Positions 33,001 to 39,000 of a DNA stretch of 64,000 nucleotides are shown here, piece by piece. This DNA is from Acidobacteriota bacterium. GTDB taxonomy: Bacteria > Acidobacteriota > UBA6911 > JACQSX01. Position numbers: made by a program. Every line of letters starts with the position of its first letter. The first letter of the stretch is position 1. Location: the NCBI GenBank assembly GCA_036507075.1, contig DASXQR010000146.1:1-64000 (forward strand), written 5' to 3'.

Positions 33001-36000
33001 CTGCTGGTAGATCGCGCGCTTCGGGGGTAATCATCTGTGTGAGAGTGCCCTCCGCGATTTCATCCAAGTCTATGTATGTGTAGAGAAAAGGGCCGCTGGA
33101 GTTGTCGCGGCTGTACACCTCGACTCGACGGCATTGGCTGATGGCGCCAAGAGTACCGCCGACACCGAAACGCCCCATACCCTTTCGGCTGTTATACCGT
33201 GTCGATTCACCAAGTACTAGACACCTCTGCAAAACGTCCGCCGGCATGCCAATACCGTCGTCACTAATCGCGATCTTATCTACAACCGTCAGCGATTCTG
33301 ATTTCTTGCCTTTTTGGATTGTTTGGAGGGTCTCTATTAAACGCACCCTTATCTCGTTTGCGCCTGCTTCGAACGCGTTGTCAAGAGGCTCACCAATCGC
33401 CGCTTCCAGCGTGTAGCCGGAGGAGCGGAGTGAGTTTAGAGCTTTGTCGACACGAATTAACGGCACCGGTTCGACTAATGTTGTTGTTGCCATAACAGTT
33501 ATCTCCTTATTTGGTGTGTACGTCTCCGAGAATCGTTGTTTAGAGTAGCGACTCAGTGCCAGTACCTATCGGCCTTCCTTTGGATACGCCGCGTCATCTG
33601 ACAGACGGCGGGGCGAGAGATCCCAAAGGCTCGGGCCACCTGTGCCTGTGAAAAACCCAGCGAGAATGCCGCAACAAGGACGCGCTCTCTGGAGGTTAGA
33701 AAGTTGGAAATAAAGGATTTAGCGCAAACTGTGCGCTCGAGGGTTGATAGGGTTCTCATTTGTCCTCCGTGCTCTCTGTCCGCCTACGGCTGGTCAGAGC
33801 GGAATGTGCGCCAGGAAATTCCGGCGACACTGCCTCTTCTTATAACACCGGTAAGGGTCATTTGTTAACTGGTCATTGAGAAAACTTTCGCAACTGTTAG
33901 GGTTATTCTTGAATTCCCGCTTCCCGAACGCTCACGCATCGCCTGCGCGTACAACCAACAAACTCTTGCAAAGAAGAAACCGAGCAAAACAGGTAATAAC
34001 AGACTACGGTTATAGCGCGCATTGAGGGATTCATCATCCCGGGAAGACAAAGTTGCTTTCACAACCAAAAGAATTCTGCCGAAAAACATTCACACCGTTA
34101 ACTATCTGAGCACGATTCTTTACACTGGTGAATGTCAACGCGTGACCGTCTGCAGACGCAACTGTTGAGATTAGCGTGCAAAGGCTCAAAGCCAGCACCG
34201 GAAAGGGGAATTGTAAATGGCAACTTTCGTGATCTACGAAGATACACGGAAAGAGTACAGGTGGCGCTTGGTGTCGAACAATGGAAGAATCATCGCAGAT
34301 TCTGCCGAAGGATACAGCACCAAGTCCGGCTGCCGTACCGCTGTGGACCTCGTAAAAACGGAGGCACCAACGGCCCACGTCGTAGAAAAATAACGCTCGG
34401 CTCGGGGGCTCGGCAACCTGTTGAGCCCCCGGGTGACCGCCACAAGAACGGAAAGGTGGTCTGGAGATTTTCGACAGGAACTGAGAAGGACAGCGACTCA
34501 ACGTGGAATTGACACTAACTTTGAAACGCGTACACTTTAATTACTTGTCTTGATATGTCCTTCAAAAGCGTTTTTATCGGCATCGACCGATACCAATCTT
34601 CCCTGATTTCCAATCTCTCGTGCTCGGTACGTGACGCGAAGGCGCTTCACGGGCTTTTCGGTGACGCCTTCGGCACCTCGGAGTCGCTTCTGCTGACTAA
34701 CGAACTAGCAACTCGTTCCGCAATTCTCAAAGGCATCCAGAATCTTCAACTGGCGAGCCCTGACGATGTTGTGGTTATCGGCTTTTCTGGCCATGGGTCG
34801 GACTCGCACCACCTGATTACATACGATGCTGATCCGCTCACTCTCGACGCAACAGCGATACACTTGGACGAACTCACAGATCTATTTTCCAGAATCCCCG
34901 CAGCAAATCTAGTGTTACTACTTGACTGCTGCTTCGCTGGTGGCGCTGGGTCGAAGGTCTTTCATGCTCCTGTGGCAGCAAAGGCACCAGCCTCAGCAGA
35001 GGCACTCTTAAATAAAATTAGCGGGAGAGGGCGGATAATATTCACCGCCGCGACTGCTGACCAAGAAGCCATTGAAGATCGGCGGCGAGGCCACGGCTTG
35101 TTTACATTTTATGTTATCGAGGGCCTCCGAGGTGCACCGGAAATCGTGAAAGCCGGCAGTATACCGGTATTGTCTCTACTGCAATTTGTCTCTCAATCAG
35201 TTATCGAAGCGGCACGGCAAATTCGGCATCAGCAGGAGCCAACCGTTAAGGGTGTCGTTGAAGGCGAATTGAGATTTCCAGTCCTCGCGCCCGGACCGAT
35301 TTACAAAGGATTTTTCCCCGAGTGCGCAGCCACGCCGGTCGGGCCAGCCATCAGTGATTTGGTTAATTTTGGATTTCCGCCGCCAATCATTCAGATTCTG
35401 CAAACCGCGATTCCTTCTCTTAATGAGCTTCAGCAGGACGCGATCAATAAAGCAGGTCTATTCGACGGGCAGCATCTGGTCGTTTCCGCGCCAACCACGT
35501 CTGGTAAGACAATGATTGGCGAACTGGCTGCGCTGCACGGTTTTACAAAAGGCGAGCGCAGTTACATGTTGTTGCCGCTGAGGGCGCTGGTCAATGACAA
35601 ATACGACGAATTCACGGCCAAGTATGGTTCCTTTGGTCTTCGAATAATTCGCTCAACAGGCGAAATCGCCGACGACAACGACTCCTTACTCCGTGGTAAG
35701 TTCGATATCGCATTCCTAACGTACGAGCGATTTGCAGCTCTCGCTCTAACCGTCCCTCACATTATGCGCCAAGTTGGCGTGATCGTTATCGACGAAGTGC
35801 AAATGATCACAGACCGTAATCGGGGCGCCAATCTTGAATTTGTGCTCACATTACTAAAAGCGCAACGGCTTTTGGGCATCGAGCCACAGATGATTGCTCT
35901 CTCAGCAGTGATTGGTGACACGAACGGTTTCGAATCGTGGCTTAATGCGCGCCTCCTGTACACGGAGAAGCGACCTGTGCCGCTTGATGAGGGCCTCATC

Positions 36001-39000
36001 GACATGAACGGAGCGTTCCGCTACGTGTCAGAGGCGGGTAAGGAAGAAGTCATCAATAATTATGCGCGACCTGAGTACCGAAAGGGGTCATCGCAGGACA
36101 TCATCATTCCACTTGTGCGGCAGTTGGTCGCTGGCGGAGAGAAGGTTATCGTCTTTCGTGAGACAAAGCCGATTGTGCGAGCAACAGCTGAGTATTTGAA
36201 GAATAACTTGGGTCTTTCTCAAGCGATCGAAACTTTAAACCTGCTTCCTATGGGTGACCCATCTGCTGCGTCGGCACAACTTCGCGGGTGCCTGGAGCAC
36301 GGTGTTGGCTTTCATAACGCCGATCTTGATCGCGAGGAGCGACAGGCTATTGAGGCGACTTTTCGGGATCCGGCCAGCTCTTTGAAAGTGCTTGTTGCGA
36401 CCACTACTCTGGCGATGGGCGTGAATACACCCGCTTGGTCGGTGGTAATCGCAGGTCTTGAGCATCCCGGTTCTCCGTACAGCGTGGCCGAATATAAGAA
36501 TATGGTCGGCCGAGCCGGCCGGCTCGGGTTCACCCCTAAAGGGAAGTCATTTTTAGTTGCGCCGACCCAGGCCGATGCTTACCATCTGTGGAATACATAT
36601 GTTCTGGGCAAACCTGAATCGCTGGTTTCGCGGTTTTCAGATCAGGAACCATTGTCGCTCGTCTGCCGCGTACTCGCAACCGCGGCAGCTTCAAAGGCCA
36701 ATAGTCTCTCCGAACAGGAGCTTGTAGACTTCATTCATTCGACCTTTGCGGCGCATCAGAAAGGACAGTATCTTGACGCCGCGACAGTCTCAGGAACTTT
36801 AGAGCGACTCCTTGGAGGGGGGCTGGTCGAACGGATCGACGACCGCTACCGATTGACTGAACTGGGTAAGGTAGCTGGAGAATTGGGTATTCAGGTCGAA
36901 AGTGTTGTGCGCATTTCACGATCCCTTCGTGGGCTCTCCGCTGGCGAACTAACAGATACCGTCTTATTGGCAGCCGCTCAGACTGCCGTGGAATTGGATG
37001 AAGTGATTTTTCCCGTTCATAGAACATCGACAAAGGAACGGGATCGCTGGCAGGGTGCCGTACGCCAACAGCATTTGCCACCCTCGGTGGCAAGCGAACT
37101 TCGGGCGATTGACGGTCGTGGCTACACCGCGCGATGTAAGCGTCTGTCGGCCGTCTTGATGTGGATCGACGGTGTAGAGCTCAATCGAATGGAGGCCTCA
37201 CTCTTACTGCACTTGCCTGGAGACAATGCAGCTGGACCGATCCGTGCATCGGCGGAGCGAACGCGCGACTTGATCGGGGTCGTCACTCGAATTGGTACAC
37301 TGGTGTCTACTAATGAAGGTTCTGAACCTAGTAATCAAATCGACCAACTTAGCATTCGACTGGAACTGGGCATTCCTGTTGATATGTTGTGGCTTGCAAA
37401 AGAGCTCAAGCGAAGTTTAGAGCGTGGAGACTACCTTGCTTTGCGGCGAGCTGGTTTAACTACCGTAGAAGCAATTGACGCGGCTGACAAAAGTGCCCTG
37501 GCGCGTGTAATAACGGGCGATGTAAAAATCAAGCGGATTCGCGAGGCTATTGAAAGGATTAAGCAAGCCAAACCTGTAAACACCGATGATCTGCCAATGC
37601 CTCTGCCAGCAATGCGGGCGGGCGAAACTTGATAACTTCCGGCGCAAATAGTCCGGGCCCGACTCAAGCTGCTATACTCAGATCATCATTCTCCTCCTGA
37701 CCCCGAACGGCAATAGGGGTTTTCTGCAAAATCATTTCAATTTTGGGGATAAGCTCGTCCCAAGTTCGAAGTCTGTCCCGAAGTGGGCTGCCAGTTGAAT
37801 ATTCAAAGCGATTTGCGATGAGATCAAAGGGAACTTTTAGCATAAACTCCGCATTTTTTCCGATCACGAGCCGGTTCGAAGTCAGGTTTTCCACCAAATC
37901 GCGCTTTTTGTCCAAAATTGCAGTTTTGTACGCAGAATAAGCACTTCCGGCGAGTTCGAGGAATCGCGCAAGCCGATCGTGAAGCGAGGTCCCACCACGG
38001 CTTAAATCCACCAATTTTTCCTCCACATCCCTCTTCGTTCCCAGAAGAGCGTTTTTGCGCTGAACGAACGTGTCCTGATCGACGAGGCGGTCAATGTAAG
38101 CGTCGGTCAGGCGGGCGAAACGCTCCTGAATTGCCGACAACTGCAGGTTCAGCGAATCGATCAGTTGTTTTTGGAGACGGATCCAATCCGCCTTGATCTG
38201 CGAGAGTTTTTGCCGGAGATAAGCCTGCTCAGGGGCGCTGAACCGGAGAAGGAATAATTTCTGAACCAGGCTGTTTTCCACCGCCTCTTCCCGAATGGCG
38301 GTAGTTGGACAAGAAGCGGTATGGCAACGGTAATAGATATGCCCTTTCTGCTTTTCTCCGACCAGCGAGTAATTACATAGCTTGCATTTGAGCAAACGCC
38401 GAAACAGGAACTCGTGCTTTTGACTGCGAATGTTGAACTTGCCATCCAATACTGACTGGACGCTATCAAACAGGGCTTTCGACACGACCGGCTCATGCAC
38501 GCCGGGGAAATGTTCCCCGGTACGGCGCAAACGTATGACGCCGGTGTAAAACGGATTGCGGAGAATCGTTGAAAGCCCGTTGCGGGAAACTTCATTGCCC
38601 CGGCGGGTGCGCAGTCCGAGGCGAAAAAGCTCGTCACCTAAAGTATCTAGATTATGTCTGGCGGTTGAGTAAAGCTCGAAGGCCCGCCGAATGAGCGGCG
38701 CTCGCACCGGGTCAGGACTTTTTGGTTTGCCGGGACCAATGTCCGAATAGCCGAGAGGGGCCTGCATGGGCAGCAGCCCTTGGTTGAGCCGCCCATAAAA
38801 GCCCTTGCGCGTCTCTTCCCGCAAATTACGAATGTAGTCGGCTGCAACTACGGCCTGAATGTCGGCCGAAAGACGACCGCCACGCGAACGCAGGTCCAGA
38901 CTCTCGTTGGCAAAGAAGATCTCTATGCCTTGGTCGATGAGTTCACCAAGATCCGCCCAGTCTTTGAGGTTGCGCGCCCCTCGGTCGATTTTGTGGATGA

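Follow-up and report, generated by a model that had tools for sequence, protein, structure and literature searches.

Helicases and caspase-like proteases in related systems

Several described systems share parts of the architecture reported here. Hachiman, composed of the HamA nuclease and the HamB helicase, is described as residing in defence islands, where its Ski2/Hel308-like helicase is proposed to sense the state of DNA and release a toxic effector; according to the same paper, HamB is a sensor of DNA damage and bacteria do not possess Hel308 (PMC12278908). For trypsin-Hachiman (HamMAB) and the canu caspase-nuclease loci, antiviral defence is described as being executed by helicase-controlled or caspase-type proteolysis; these are presented as systems of several genes, in which a pro-nuclease is the dedicated substrate, and firing of the HamMAB protease is reported to require DNA, ATP hydrolysis and oligomerisation (PMC12799240). 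A caspase-fold protease is reported to act as the only effector, unaccompanied by a target gene of its own, in type IV Thoeris (cited in PMC13069673), where sensing occurs through a TIR-made signal, and in the E. coli 27-18K caspase (bioRxiv 10.1101/2025.11.14.688446). The catalytic Cys is described as essential for defence in both, and the latter source reports that E. coli is protected by an effector-less caspase-like protein. STAND/NLR-type proteins, for example KrAvs12 with EACC1 in that source, join an NTPase sensor to an N-terminal caspase-like protease, and EACC1-associated caspases are reported to belong to conflict systems of multicellular prokaryotes (PMC7159879). Finally, helicase domains were found in 12 of 671 bacterial metacaspases by Asplund-Samuelsson et al. 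in 2012 (PMC3501461). Their supplementary file 3 lists the architecture Bac_PepC14, DEAD and Helicase_C, including an entry from Rhodopseudomonas palustris DX-1 with PepC14 at residues 1-254, DEAD at 289-456 and Helicase_C at 575-659.

The window, which is the whole stretch of 64,000 nucleotides analysed here, encodes one protein that contains both a caspase-fold protease and a Hel308-type helicase. It shares with Hachiman the proposed logic of a DNA-sensing helicase that releases an effector, but has no HamA partner, and its effector is a protease in cis rather than a nuclease in trans. Unlike the HamMAB and canu loci, it combines these functions in one polypeptide of caspase fold, for which a conserved substrate gene was not found, although no search of the neighbours was aimed at MBL-fold nucleases. 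Its proposed sensor is a helicase instead of a TIR-made signal and, in contrast to that of KrAvs12-type proteins, belongs to SF2 and not to the STAND ATPases. The initial annotation had considered the protein to represent a new defence family. This claim has to be tempered because the same architecture, with domains at the same coordinates, is already listed in the 2012 census, and helicase-gated proteolysis has been published for trypsin-Hachiman. The census is a listing, with no Hel308 assignment, genomic context or proposed function.

Structure of the fusion protein

The fusion gene (g03176, 34555..37632, + strand) is an ORF from ATG to TGA that translates to 1025 amino acids, with one match in the 6.1-Mb assembly, and is therefore single-copy. 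Its length and its Peptidase_C14, DEAD, DEXQc_Suv3 and Helicase_C domains are as initially annotated. The start is consistent with those of its homologues, whose consensus opens with MxFxGLFIGIDRY in an alignment of 43 sequences, from which all conservation counts below are taken. A promoter-like site (TTGACA-16-TACACT, 34509..34536, + strand), matching 10 of 12 consensus positions and lying 19 nt before the ATG, is weak evidence, as three such sites were found in the region and 2.8 are expected by chance. The full protein model has a pLDDT of 84.8 and a pTM of 0.74, and the domains described below follow one another on the + strand.

Residues 1-245 (34555..35289) form a clan CD, C14 caspase fold, identified by Pfam, a domain model and Foldseek. 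Peptidase_C14 matches residues 6-231 (1.5e-13, 51.4 bits against a cut-off of 21.4), and the PADLOC "caspase" model matches residues 8-154 (1.6e-13). The model of the domain alone has a pLDDT of 84.9 and resembles MALT1 (Foldseek, 5.6e-13), the yeast metacaspase Yca1 and caspases. The catalytic dyad consists of His80 (codon 34792-34794) and Cys126 (codon 34930-34932), and S78, G79, H80 and G81 as well as D124, C125, C126 and F127 are invariant in 43/43 sequences. In two related loci (L016 and L030) the latter motif reads DACF, that is, the second Cys alone is retained. The catalytic Cys is followed in the full model by a low-confidence loop (residues 128-160), which bears a basic residue at positions 134 and 143 in all 43 sequences. 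The nearest NCBIfam model is "caspase, EACC1-associated type" (2.4e-22), with a score below the cut-off (79.5 vs 140 bits).

A structured helical linker (residues 246-285, 35290..35409) lies between protease and helicase; DSSP on the full model assigns helices at 248-253, 266-272 and 276-285, the block has a pLDDT of 70-90, and F254 and P255 are invariant. The SF2 motor, RecA1 plus RecA2 (residues 286-690, 35410..36624), is covered by Pfam DEAD at 291-453 (4.4e-22), DEXQc_Suv3 (3.3e-7) and Helicase_C at 581-658 (1.2e-11). It contains a Walker A motif APTTSGKT (312-319), DEVQ (413-416) and a motif VI GRAGR (652-656), of which P313, T314, G317, K318, T319, D413, E414, Q416, G652, R653, G655 and R656 are invariant (43/43 sequences); the catalytic centres of both halves are conserved, as first described. 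Hel308 winged-helix, ratchet and helix-hairpin-helix accessory domains follow at residues 691-1006 (36625..37572, limits approximate). The protein ends in a disordered tail (residues 1007-1025 plus stop, 37573..37632), with pLDDT <50 at 1006-1013 and 1017-1025. A short motif (D/E)LPMP is conserved there in the C-terminal alignment; when 68 full-length proteins from the loci were compared, other clades had P-x-Y-E-A-like ends.

The helicase is a complete five-domain Hel308-type enzyme and not specifically HamB. NCBIfam PRK02362 matches residues 275-1006 over profile positions 9-710 of 739 (1.6e-89); the score is far below the equivalog cut-offs (301 vs 887 bits). The model aligns by VIA-align with Hel308 9b15_B (Z 38.0, rmsd 3.1), 669 of 680 Hel308 residues being aligned to model residues 264-1001, and Foldseek of the model against Hel308 gave E 8e-42 and a target TM of 0.89. 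All five domains match those of archaeal Hel308/Hjm (PDB 9b15, 2p6r, 2zj8, 2va8) and the Pol theta helicase domain; in contrast to the archaeal enzymes, the fusion is bacterial and mobile, and carries 285 N-terminal residues of caspase domain plus linker. The helicase had initially been considered to be HamB- or Hachiman-like. Its SF2 nature and its matches to PADLOC models (PDC-M23B 3.2e-33; HamB models, the best at 2.3e-29, making up 18 of the 25 rows shown) were reproduced, but in a phmmer search of PDB sequences it is less similar to HamB (1e-20) than to Hjm (8.1e-54). The PADLOC matches are generic to Hel308-like proteins, as the PDC-M23B and HamB models are matched equally well by a genuine HamB and by unrelated Hel308-like proteins.

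Genomic context and distribution

The fusion gene lies inside a 38.5-kb island at a tRNA-Val, bounded at both ends by a 91-nt direct repeat that duplicates the 3' half of the tRNA. The tRNA-Val (23730-23806, ARAGORN) and the left repeat copy (23762-23852) occupy 23730..23852 on the + strand, and the right copy, found by repeat search at the far end of the island (62246..62336, + strand), is 90% identical at a spacing of 38484 nt. The G+C content is 0.50-0.57 within the island and 0.54-0.60 outside, returning to 0.557 beyond 62 kb. These features agree with the integrated mobile element proposed by the initial annotation, and the neighbours it named were likewise recovered: an SspBCD module 3 kb from the fusion gene (SspB, SspC and SspD at 3.5e-92, 0 and 4.6e-116), a large serine recombinase (37664-39220, - strand) and a TrwB/HerA-like ATPase (44260-45663).

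Relatives of the fusion were found in 308 of 185,579 GTDB species genomes, compared with 34 loci in the earlier count, and the 80 best of these were retained for comparison of loci, 78 of them with a called gene. Within its own class the fusion occurs in 1 of 125 genomes, that of the window, and is absent from the other 124. Full-length copies are present on 17 plasmid records, and conjugative and mobilisable plasmids make up 14 of 26 matching records. Near-identical copies (99.5-100% protein identity) are carried by 15 species genomes, whose titles name Bradyrhizobium, Afipia, Bosea, Sphingomonas, Xanthobacter and others. Together with the island in the window, these records support horizontal mobility of the gene. 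Carriers further include Myxococcus, Sorangium, Streptomyces, cyanobacteria and Planctomycetes, as well as tiny-genome Patescibacteria, Rickettsiales and Bdellovibrio-like MAGs. The fusion is nearly absent from viruses: none of 50,697 phage records and one IMG/VR contig hold most of it, a neutral point that gives no link to phages.

The reading of the fusion as a stand-alone protein is supported, as no neighbour family is conserved across the 78 loci, in a comparison that included no search aimed at EACC1. The commonest neighbour clusters are present in 18 loci, and for cluster 2 (DUF2158) all 18 represent one near-identical alphaproteobacterial element. None of the 80 related loci contains DUF1508, SspB, SspC or SspD; the Ssp neighbourhood is a coincidence of this island. 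A PADLOC match (E<=1e-10) lies within three genes of the fusion in 34 of 78 loci (33 of 60 without the 18 near-identical loci), and 44 have none. These neighbours include pAgo and its nuclease, a CBASS cyclase with its 2TM effector, Gabija, a complete Hachiman, Avs2, AbiEii, MkoC and type I, II, III and IIG restriction-modification; on Acaryochloris plasmid pREB8 the fusion is located beside NB-ARC and TIR proteins. The raw enrichment is modest, with matches for 51/347 neighbours (14.7%) against 12/146 random genes (8.2%) from a single genome, the window's own (odds ratio 1.9, p=0.055). Without the 18 near-identical loci it amounts to 50/278 (p=0.006), the loci not being independent.

Proposed function and alternatives

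We consider the fusion to be a mobile, self-contained conflict protein, most likely of anti-phage abortive infection, in which the DNA-loaded helicase activates the protease; the chance that this is correct appears to be about even. The C-terminal three quarters, a complete and probably ATPase-competent 3'-5' DNA helicase of Hel308 type, would be the sensor, and the N-terminal quarter, a presumably active caspase-fold cysteine protease, the effector. At rest, the protease would be kept inactive within the same polypeptide, restraint in cis being suggested because an antitoxin-like or partner gene is not conserved. The helicase may load on DNA structures, such as 3' tails, forks or gaps, that build up when the cell is infected or its genome is damaged. 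DNA-dependent ATP turnover could then cause a conformational change, or several molecules could crowd on one DNA, by which the caspase domains would be freed or brought together, possibly with self-cleavage at a conserved Lys/Arg of the flexible loop that follows the catalytic Cys. The S1 pockets of metacaspases and paracaspases prefer Arg or Lys. By analogy, the fusion caspase may have the same P1 preference and cut proteins of the cell or of the phage after basic residues, so that growth would stop before the phage cycle is completed.

The SspBCD module nearby and the match of HamB profiles to the motor might suggest a restriction or effector partner of the phosphorothioation module, or a variant Hachiman that needs the HamA nuclease. 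Both are extremely improbable and largely refuted by the neighbour counts: Ssp genes do not recur in the related loci, unrelated Hel308-like proteins match the same profiles, and HamA matched none of the 37 window neighbours and was found within three genes of the fusion in 1 of 78 loci, there beside its own 851-aa HamB. A very unlikely reading is a regulated device for cell death or stress that has nothing to do with phages, for example in developmental or kin-conflict death of socially complex bacteria, and that would respond to damage of the cell's own DNA. Carriers such as Myxococcus, Sorangium, Streptomyces, cyanobacteria and Planctomycetes, and the below-cut-off EACC1-type match, would agree with such a device, but its presence in Patescibacteria, Rickettsiales and Bdellovibrio-like MAGs does not, and mobility with restriction-modification, pAgo and CBASS neighbours fits anti-invader roles better.

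A role for the mobile element itself, for example in helping it to establish after transfer, in excluding rival elements or in destroying host proteins that serve defence or bind DNA, is unlikely. It would accord with the plasmid records, the integrase-bearing element of the 18 loci, and a backbone of serine recombinase, Dam, TrwB/HerA-like ATPase and tyrosine integrase, in which the fusion occupies the same place in the window and in L009 and whose genes flank it on both sides in L072. Most other loci, however, have a different backbone and are flanked by defence systems rather than transfer genes. Defence genes are common cargo of mobile elements, and the element context thus discriminates poorly. 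Equally improbable is a repair or roadblock-clearing enzyme, in which the translocase would move on ssDNA at stalled forks and the fused protease digest stuck or cross-linked proteins, as a helicase-coupled counterpart of DNA-protein-crosslink proteases to the benefit of the host or the carrying element. A repair role would be natural since Hel308 enzymes are DNA-repair helicases, and Hel308/Hjm and the Pol theta helicase domain are the closest relatives of the motor; protease and motor are moreover predicted to be rigidly linked in one chain, and a pro-toxin partner is not conserved. Against this, the extremely patchy spread, carriage on islands and plasmids, recent inter-order transfer and frequent defence-system neighbours are atypical of housekeeping repair genes.

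Protease and helicase parts of the fusion

The caspase-Hel308 fusion is encoded on the + strand by an uninterrupted open reading frame of 1025 codons (34555-37632), from ATG to TGA, and is present in one copy in the 6.1-Mb assembly. The Pfam matches reported in the initial annotation were reproduced, namely Peptidase_C14 (residues 6-231, 1.5e-13, over the gathering score), DEAD, DEXQc_Suv3 and Helicase_C, as were the PADLOC matches to PDC-M23B (3.2e-33), to the Hachiman helicase HamB (18 of the 25 rows shown) and to 'caspase' (1.6e-13). The neighbours named there, SspB/SspC/SspD, a large serine recombinase and a TrwB/HerA-like ATPase, were also found, and the conservation claimed for protease and helicase motifs was without exception in 43/43 full-length homologues, aligned at 47-80% identity.

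PF00656 matches the fusion with 51.4 bits, the Pfam cut-off being 21.4. Residues 1-275, modelled alone with an alignment of homologues, gave a caspase fold (pLDDT 84.9), and Foldseek placed MALT1 paracaspase at the top for this domain model (5.6e-13), followed by a Geobacter structural-genomics protein, the yeast metacaspase Yca1 and caspases 1, 3, 6, 8 and 9 at 1e-10 to 1e-9. By sequence and model, the N-terminus is predicted to adopt the caspase-hemoglobinase fold (clan CD, peptidase family C14). H80 (FSGHG), C125 and C126 (both in DCCF) are invariant in 43/43 aligned sequences, and the fusion possesses the putative His-Cys catalytic dyad of C14. The homologues of two planctomycete loci (L016 and L030, of the loci L001-L080 kept for comparison) read FSCHG...DACF, with the His and the second Cys retained and C125 replaced by Ala; because the second Cys alone is retained in these two, Cys126 is probably the nucleophile. 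The loop that follows the catalytic Cys (residues 128-160) is the sole poorly predicted part of the caspase domain in the models, and within it positions 134 and 143 are Lys or Arg in 43/43 sequences. Asp124 is likewise invariant in the homologues. In Arg/Lys-specific metacaspases and paracaspases, the S1 pocket is lined by an Asp that precedes the catalytic Cys by two positions, and a basic P1 preference, with possible self-cleavage in loop 128-160, is therefore suggested. A predicted homodimer of the caspase domain (2 x 275 aa) scored 0.39, 0.25 and 0.22, the mark being 0.42; these values count neither for nor against dimerisation.

The helicase motifs APTTSGKT (including K318), DEVQ (DExQ, 413-416) and GRAGR (652-656) are invariant in 43/43 aligned sequences and correspond to the Walker A, DExH/Q and motif VI of a predicted RecA1/RecA2 motor. 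Residues 275-1006 match positions 9-710 of 739 of the archaeal Hel308-type profile PRK02362 of NCBIfam (1.6e-89). The full-length model (pLDDT 84.8, pTM 0.74) superposes on Hel308 (9b15_B) with Z 38.0 and rmsd 3.1 over 669/680 residues, with a Foldseek E-value of 8e-42; for the Pol theta helicase domain, Z is 34.9. The motor is followed by predicted winged-helix, ratchet and HhH domains, and the helicase part is by profile and model a complete Hel308. The NCBIfam equivalog cut-offs for archaeal Hel308 are not reached (PRK02362, 301 vs 887 bits; helicase_Hel308, 231 vs 1200), and the fusion helicase probably shares fold and lineage with the archaeal Hel308 repair enzyme but is not its orthologue. 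In the ESM Atlas, archaeal Hel308 clusters rank right behind the fusion's own clusters.

The PADLOC matches had been taken as a sign of HamB kinship, but they are nonspecific, and Hel308 scores higher. The HamB models (best 2.3e-29) cover the motor only, whereas Hel308 profiles and structures score far higher; in sequence comparison with structures, Hjm reached 8.1e-54 and HamB (8vx9) 1e-20, the latter mostly on RecA1. The same models also match the nearest Hel308-like proteins that possess no caspase: HamB and PDC-M23B models were matched by 16/16 of these sister helicases tested, at about 1e-26 to 1e-45 overall and at 1e-30 to 1e-45 for the HamB models, and the genuine HamB of locus L045 matches PDC-M23B at 7.1e-33. 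Neither Foldseek nor VIA-align lists 8vx9 in its 50 entries for the full model, but with lists of limited length this absence is no evidence in itself. Membership of the candidate system PDC-M23 was not found, the PDC-M23B match being less than full-length (best stretch, profile positions 614-790 of 1060) and PDC-M23A having no match among the window's neighbours.

The sister helicases (P0206-P0266) are about 880-1000 aa long, with the motor starting from about residue 25 and with C-terminal extensions, which among those scanned comprise an OmpR-type winged helix (Trans_reg_C) in five and an Mrr_cat nuclease in one. They may be effector-swapped relatives of the fusion. At the extreme C-terminus of the fusion family itself (residues 1007-1025 in the window's protein; tails of L001-L080), a short motif is kept behind a variable linker; the window's clade has (D/E)LPMP, and elsewhere the last five or six residues read P-x-(Y/F)-(E/V/Q)-x. 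It is possibly a docking or autoinhibitory peptide.

The island in the window

A tRNA-Val gene lies at 23730-23806, and its 3' half plus 46 nt (23762-23852) is repeated 38,484 nt downstream (62246-62336) with 90% identity; G+C is lower between the two copies than outside them. The integrated mobile element proposed for this region is thus delimited as a 38.5-kb island bounded by a tRNA-Val direct repeat. It contains SspBCD, a GHKL ATPase, an HTH gene, a DUF1508 gene, the fusion, the serine recombinase, RadC, a Dam-type methylase, the TrwB/HerA-like ATPase, a tyrosine integrase and a VWA-PP2C-kinase triad. The tyrosine integrase (47194-48234) occupies the middle of the island (23762-62336) and not one of its ends, and the island has a serine recombinase in addition; it may be two elements in tandem.

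The phosphorothioation genes SspB, SspC and SspD occupy 26309-33493, with no recognisable SspA or SspE within the window. Convergent with them is the 598-aa GHKL ATPase, which has weak matches to MzaB (4.9e-17) and to the BbrUII/HgiDII restriction enzyme (6.8e-7) and could be a modification-sensing partner of the Ssp module. The DUF1508 gene (34217-34393; 58 aa, HVO_2922-like) lies 161 nt upstream of the fusion and is followed by a G+C-rich hairpin. Three consecutive genes at 49983-54016 encode a VWA protein, whose N-terminal part contains an NYN-like RNase stretch, together with a PP2C phosphatase and a protein kinase; PADLOC gives weak kinase matches alone for this triad, which we take to resemble the TerY-P type. 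Finally, a 30-nt motif occurs in three intergenic copies around the island's RadC and HTH genes (39521-39550, 39812-39841 and 40471-40500), 67-80% alike to the reference copy, and these may serve the mobile element as operators or promoters.

Distribution and gene neighbourhood of the family

A word-indexed protein search with the fusion returned 1263 proteins at E<=1e-10. Peptidase_C14 is precomputed in 107/119 other proteins among the matches listed, and several listed homologues lacking this precomputed domain are in the alignment of 43, with the dyad kept. An exhaustive search with the helicase part alone extended the family down to about 31% identity, these members being about 1000-1060 aa long, with the helicase beginning around residue 280-300; Pfam finds the caspase in 8/13 of the divergent members scanned. 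In a scan of one genome per GTDB species, 308 carriers were found; to judge by their titles, the best 80 of these loci (L001-L080) represent no fewer than 15 phylum-level groups, Patescibacteria and Myxococcota included. The titles slightly overstate the taxonomic spread, since L018 and L019, MAG contigs named 'actinobacterium' and 'Gemmatimonadetes', agree in gene order and in the clusters surrounding the fusion and are probably one sequence binned twice. Within the window's class, the gene is found in its own genome only (1/125 genomes at least 80% complete); patchiness was measured at this level, the family- and order-level sets, with 5 and 4 genomes, being too few. Full-length fusions are present on 17 plasmid records, annotated solely as 'DEAD/DEAH box helicase' or 'superfamily II helicase'. 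Most of the fusion is found in 0/50,697 phage records and in one IMG/VR contig.

Open reading frames of all 80 loci were called by one simple rule and clustered, the fusion being called in 78 of them (not in L023 and L041). The most widespread neighbour clusters reach 18 of the 78 loci, and those of cluster 2 (DUF2158) are all one near-identical alphaproteobacterial element, in which 12 nt separate the fusion from an upstream DUF2158 gene and an integrase follows. Copies of the fusion 99.5-100% identical occur in 15 species genomes titled Bradyrhizobium, Afipia, Bosea, Rhodopseudomonas, Sphingomonas, Xanthobacter and others, and therefore point to very recent transfer across orders. The integrase-bearing element that carries them (L049-L069), found in several families of two orders, groups the fusion with AbiEii, DUF6088 and a 1151-aa M78-peptidase/UvrD/PD-(D/E)xK protein. 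Neither of two candidate general partners was sustained: DUF1508 was found in 0/80 loci, and strong DUF2158 matches were confined to 20 loci whose titles are alphaproteobacterial or simply 'Proteobacteria', L005 adding a weak one (E 0.002). As no neighbour family is conserved across the 78 loci, the description of the fusion as stand-alone was borne out; since partner genes do not recur across loci, its Ssp neighbourhood appears incidental.

The fusion scores 79.5 bits with the NCBIfam model of the EACC1-associated caspase, below the cut-off of 140, and no conserved neighbour, as an EACC1 partner would be, was found among the clustered genes of the 78 loci, though no search was aimed at EACC1 itself. 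A CapH/CapP-like regulator pair lies directly upstream of the fusion in four loci (L001, L031, L033 and L037; PADLOC E 2e-9 to 4e-9); its peptidase is without Pfam or NCBIfam support, and the pair is a weak lead. Ten loci, drawn from at least five phyla, have ThiF/E1-like genes no more than a few genes away from the fusion (L001, L016, L030, L031, L033, L037, L043, L052, L055 and L058). One type bears a weak resemblance to cap2_3 of 6A-MBL, a second is a DUF6791-ThiF gene accompanied by DUF6527, and the E1-like gene of L033 and L037 stops 3-4 nt short of the fusion. Co-transfer or functional coupling may account for them; a tie to the conserved C-terminal tail was dropped, the tails of E1-adjacent and other members being alike.

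Defence genes around the fusion were scanned with PADLOC (E<=1e-10) using one representative per cluster for genes of at least 70 aa within three genes of the fusion (260 proteins, representing 347 genes). At least one match was present in 34/78 loci, or 33/60 without the 18 near-identical ones, and 51/347 neighbour genes matched (14.7%). The control was drawn from the window's own genome, where the first 146 of the 162 open reading frames called by the same rule in twelve random 15-kb stretches gave 12 matches (8.2%; odds ratio 1.9, p=0.055); without the 18 redundant loci, 50/278 neighbour genes matched (p=0.006). The raw enrichment is modest; one genome served as control, and the loci are not independent. 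The kind of match differs: control matches include RecQ, UvrD, Ser/Thr kinases, ABC ATPases, a sigma-54 activator and a radical-SAM enzyme, whereas signature systems are found near the fusion. These include a long pAgo with a Cas4-like nuclease (L016, L030), a CBASS cyclase with a 2TM effector, together with RmrA and HEC-05 (L025), Gabija (L039, L045), complete HamA+HamB (L045), Avs2 (L073), and type I, II, III and IIG restriction-modification, AbiEii, MkoC and HmaC. On the Acaryochloris plasmid pREB8, NB-ARC and TIR proteins are encoded next to the fusion. In the Chryseobacterium locus L045 (10001-16682), the fusion is flanked directly by a Gabija pair (GajA and a UvrD-like gene) on one side and by Hachiman (HamA, 297 aa; HamB, 851 aa) on the other, and HamB and the Hel308 fusion thus coexist in one island.

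Proposed role and alternative readings

The fusion is best filed as a putative variant of sensor-effector defence proteins, with a Hel308 as candidate sensor and a caspase as candidate effector in cis. The proposal of a one-protein defence system is upheld in part: its stand-alone nature, conserved catalytic residues and mobility stand, the HamB label is imprecise, and the Ssp link does not hold. Conservation suggests that protease and helicase are both under strong purifying selection, and the model joins them by a structured linker. Since no inhibitor or substrate gene travels with the fusion, control would be intramolecular and the targets would be proteins that every host or invader possesses. 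For Hel308 enzymes, 3' tails and forks are the loading sites. HamB, a related helicase, is described as sensing DNA damage (PMC12278908), and the protease of trypsin-Hachiman as being fired by DNA, ATP hydrolysis and oligomerisation (PMC12799240). By analogy, these properties favour a sequence in which the helicase would load on DNA, ATP would drive a conformational change or molecules would crowd on one DNA, the caspase would be activated, perhaps via loop cleavage at K134/K143, and proteolysis directed at Arg/Lys would lead to growth arrest.

Taken as one proposition, with a likelihood we place somewhat below even, the fusion would represent, in minimal bacterial form, what nucleic-acid-sensing immunity is in animals: Hel308 would read the state of DNA and directly gate the fused caspase, so that one polypeptide kills or arrests the infected cell. 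Its family would also be a bacterial Hel308 lineage, missing so far, from which immune helicases (such as HamB) and repair helicases diverged, and the nuclease- or wHTH-tailed sister helicases would be its effector-swapped relatives.

Other roles have been weighed. A protease-helicase that repairs DNA or clears roadblocks is unlikely; such a role would suit the lineage shared with the archaeal repair enzyme. Service to the carrying mobile element is likewise of low probability; the gene's place on an island and on plasmids would suit it, but the serine recombinase-Dam-TrwB-like-integrase backbone recurs in only two of the 80 loci (L009 and L072). A death device independent of phages is very improbable, and signature defence systems lie near the gene. 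A restriction partner of Ssp and a member of Hachiman are both essentially excluded. With the window's sequences as tblastn queries, SspB, SspC and SspD were found in 0/80 related loci at E<=1e-5, and the Ssp reading was rejected on this lack of co-occurrence; the Hachiman nuclease HamA (DUF1837) has no match among the 37 window neighbours and lies within three genes of the fusion in 1/78 loci, there beside its own HamB.

The claim of a new defence family stands in part. Asplund-Samuelsson et al. 2012 (PMC3501461) counted 12 helicase-bearing bacterial metacaspases, and supplementary file 3 of that study gives Bac_PepC14[1-254]|DEAD[289-456]|Helicase_C[575-659] for a Rhodopseudomonas palustris protein; the architecture is therefore not new as a listing. 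No functional study of a caspase-helicase fusion and no mention of 'PDC-M23' was found in the literature searched, and PADLOC v2 and NCBIfam (June 2026) hold no full-length model of the fusion. An effector-less caspase-like protein of E. coli 27-18K, reported in a preprint as protective against T2, T4 and PhiV1 (bioRxiv 10.1101/2025.11.14.688446), may overlap with the fusion family.

If it protects against phages, the fusion would be the first case of a helicase and a caspase-fold protease acting together for defence in one chain, and the coupling of DNA sensing to proteolysis would be open to biochemical dissection with one purified protein. The protease-gated logic of trypsin-Hachiman and canu would be extended to a cis-fused caspase, and full Hel308-type helicases would occur in bacteria as mobile immune hardware. 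The idea is directly testable, since homologues are found in culturable strains; carriers include Afipia broomeae ATCC 49717, Sphingobacterium spiritivorum ATCC 33861, the Bradyrhizobium plasmid pNK6d and the Acaryochloris plasmid pREB8.
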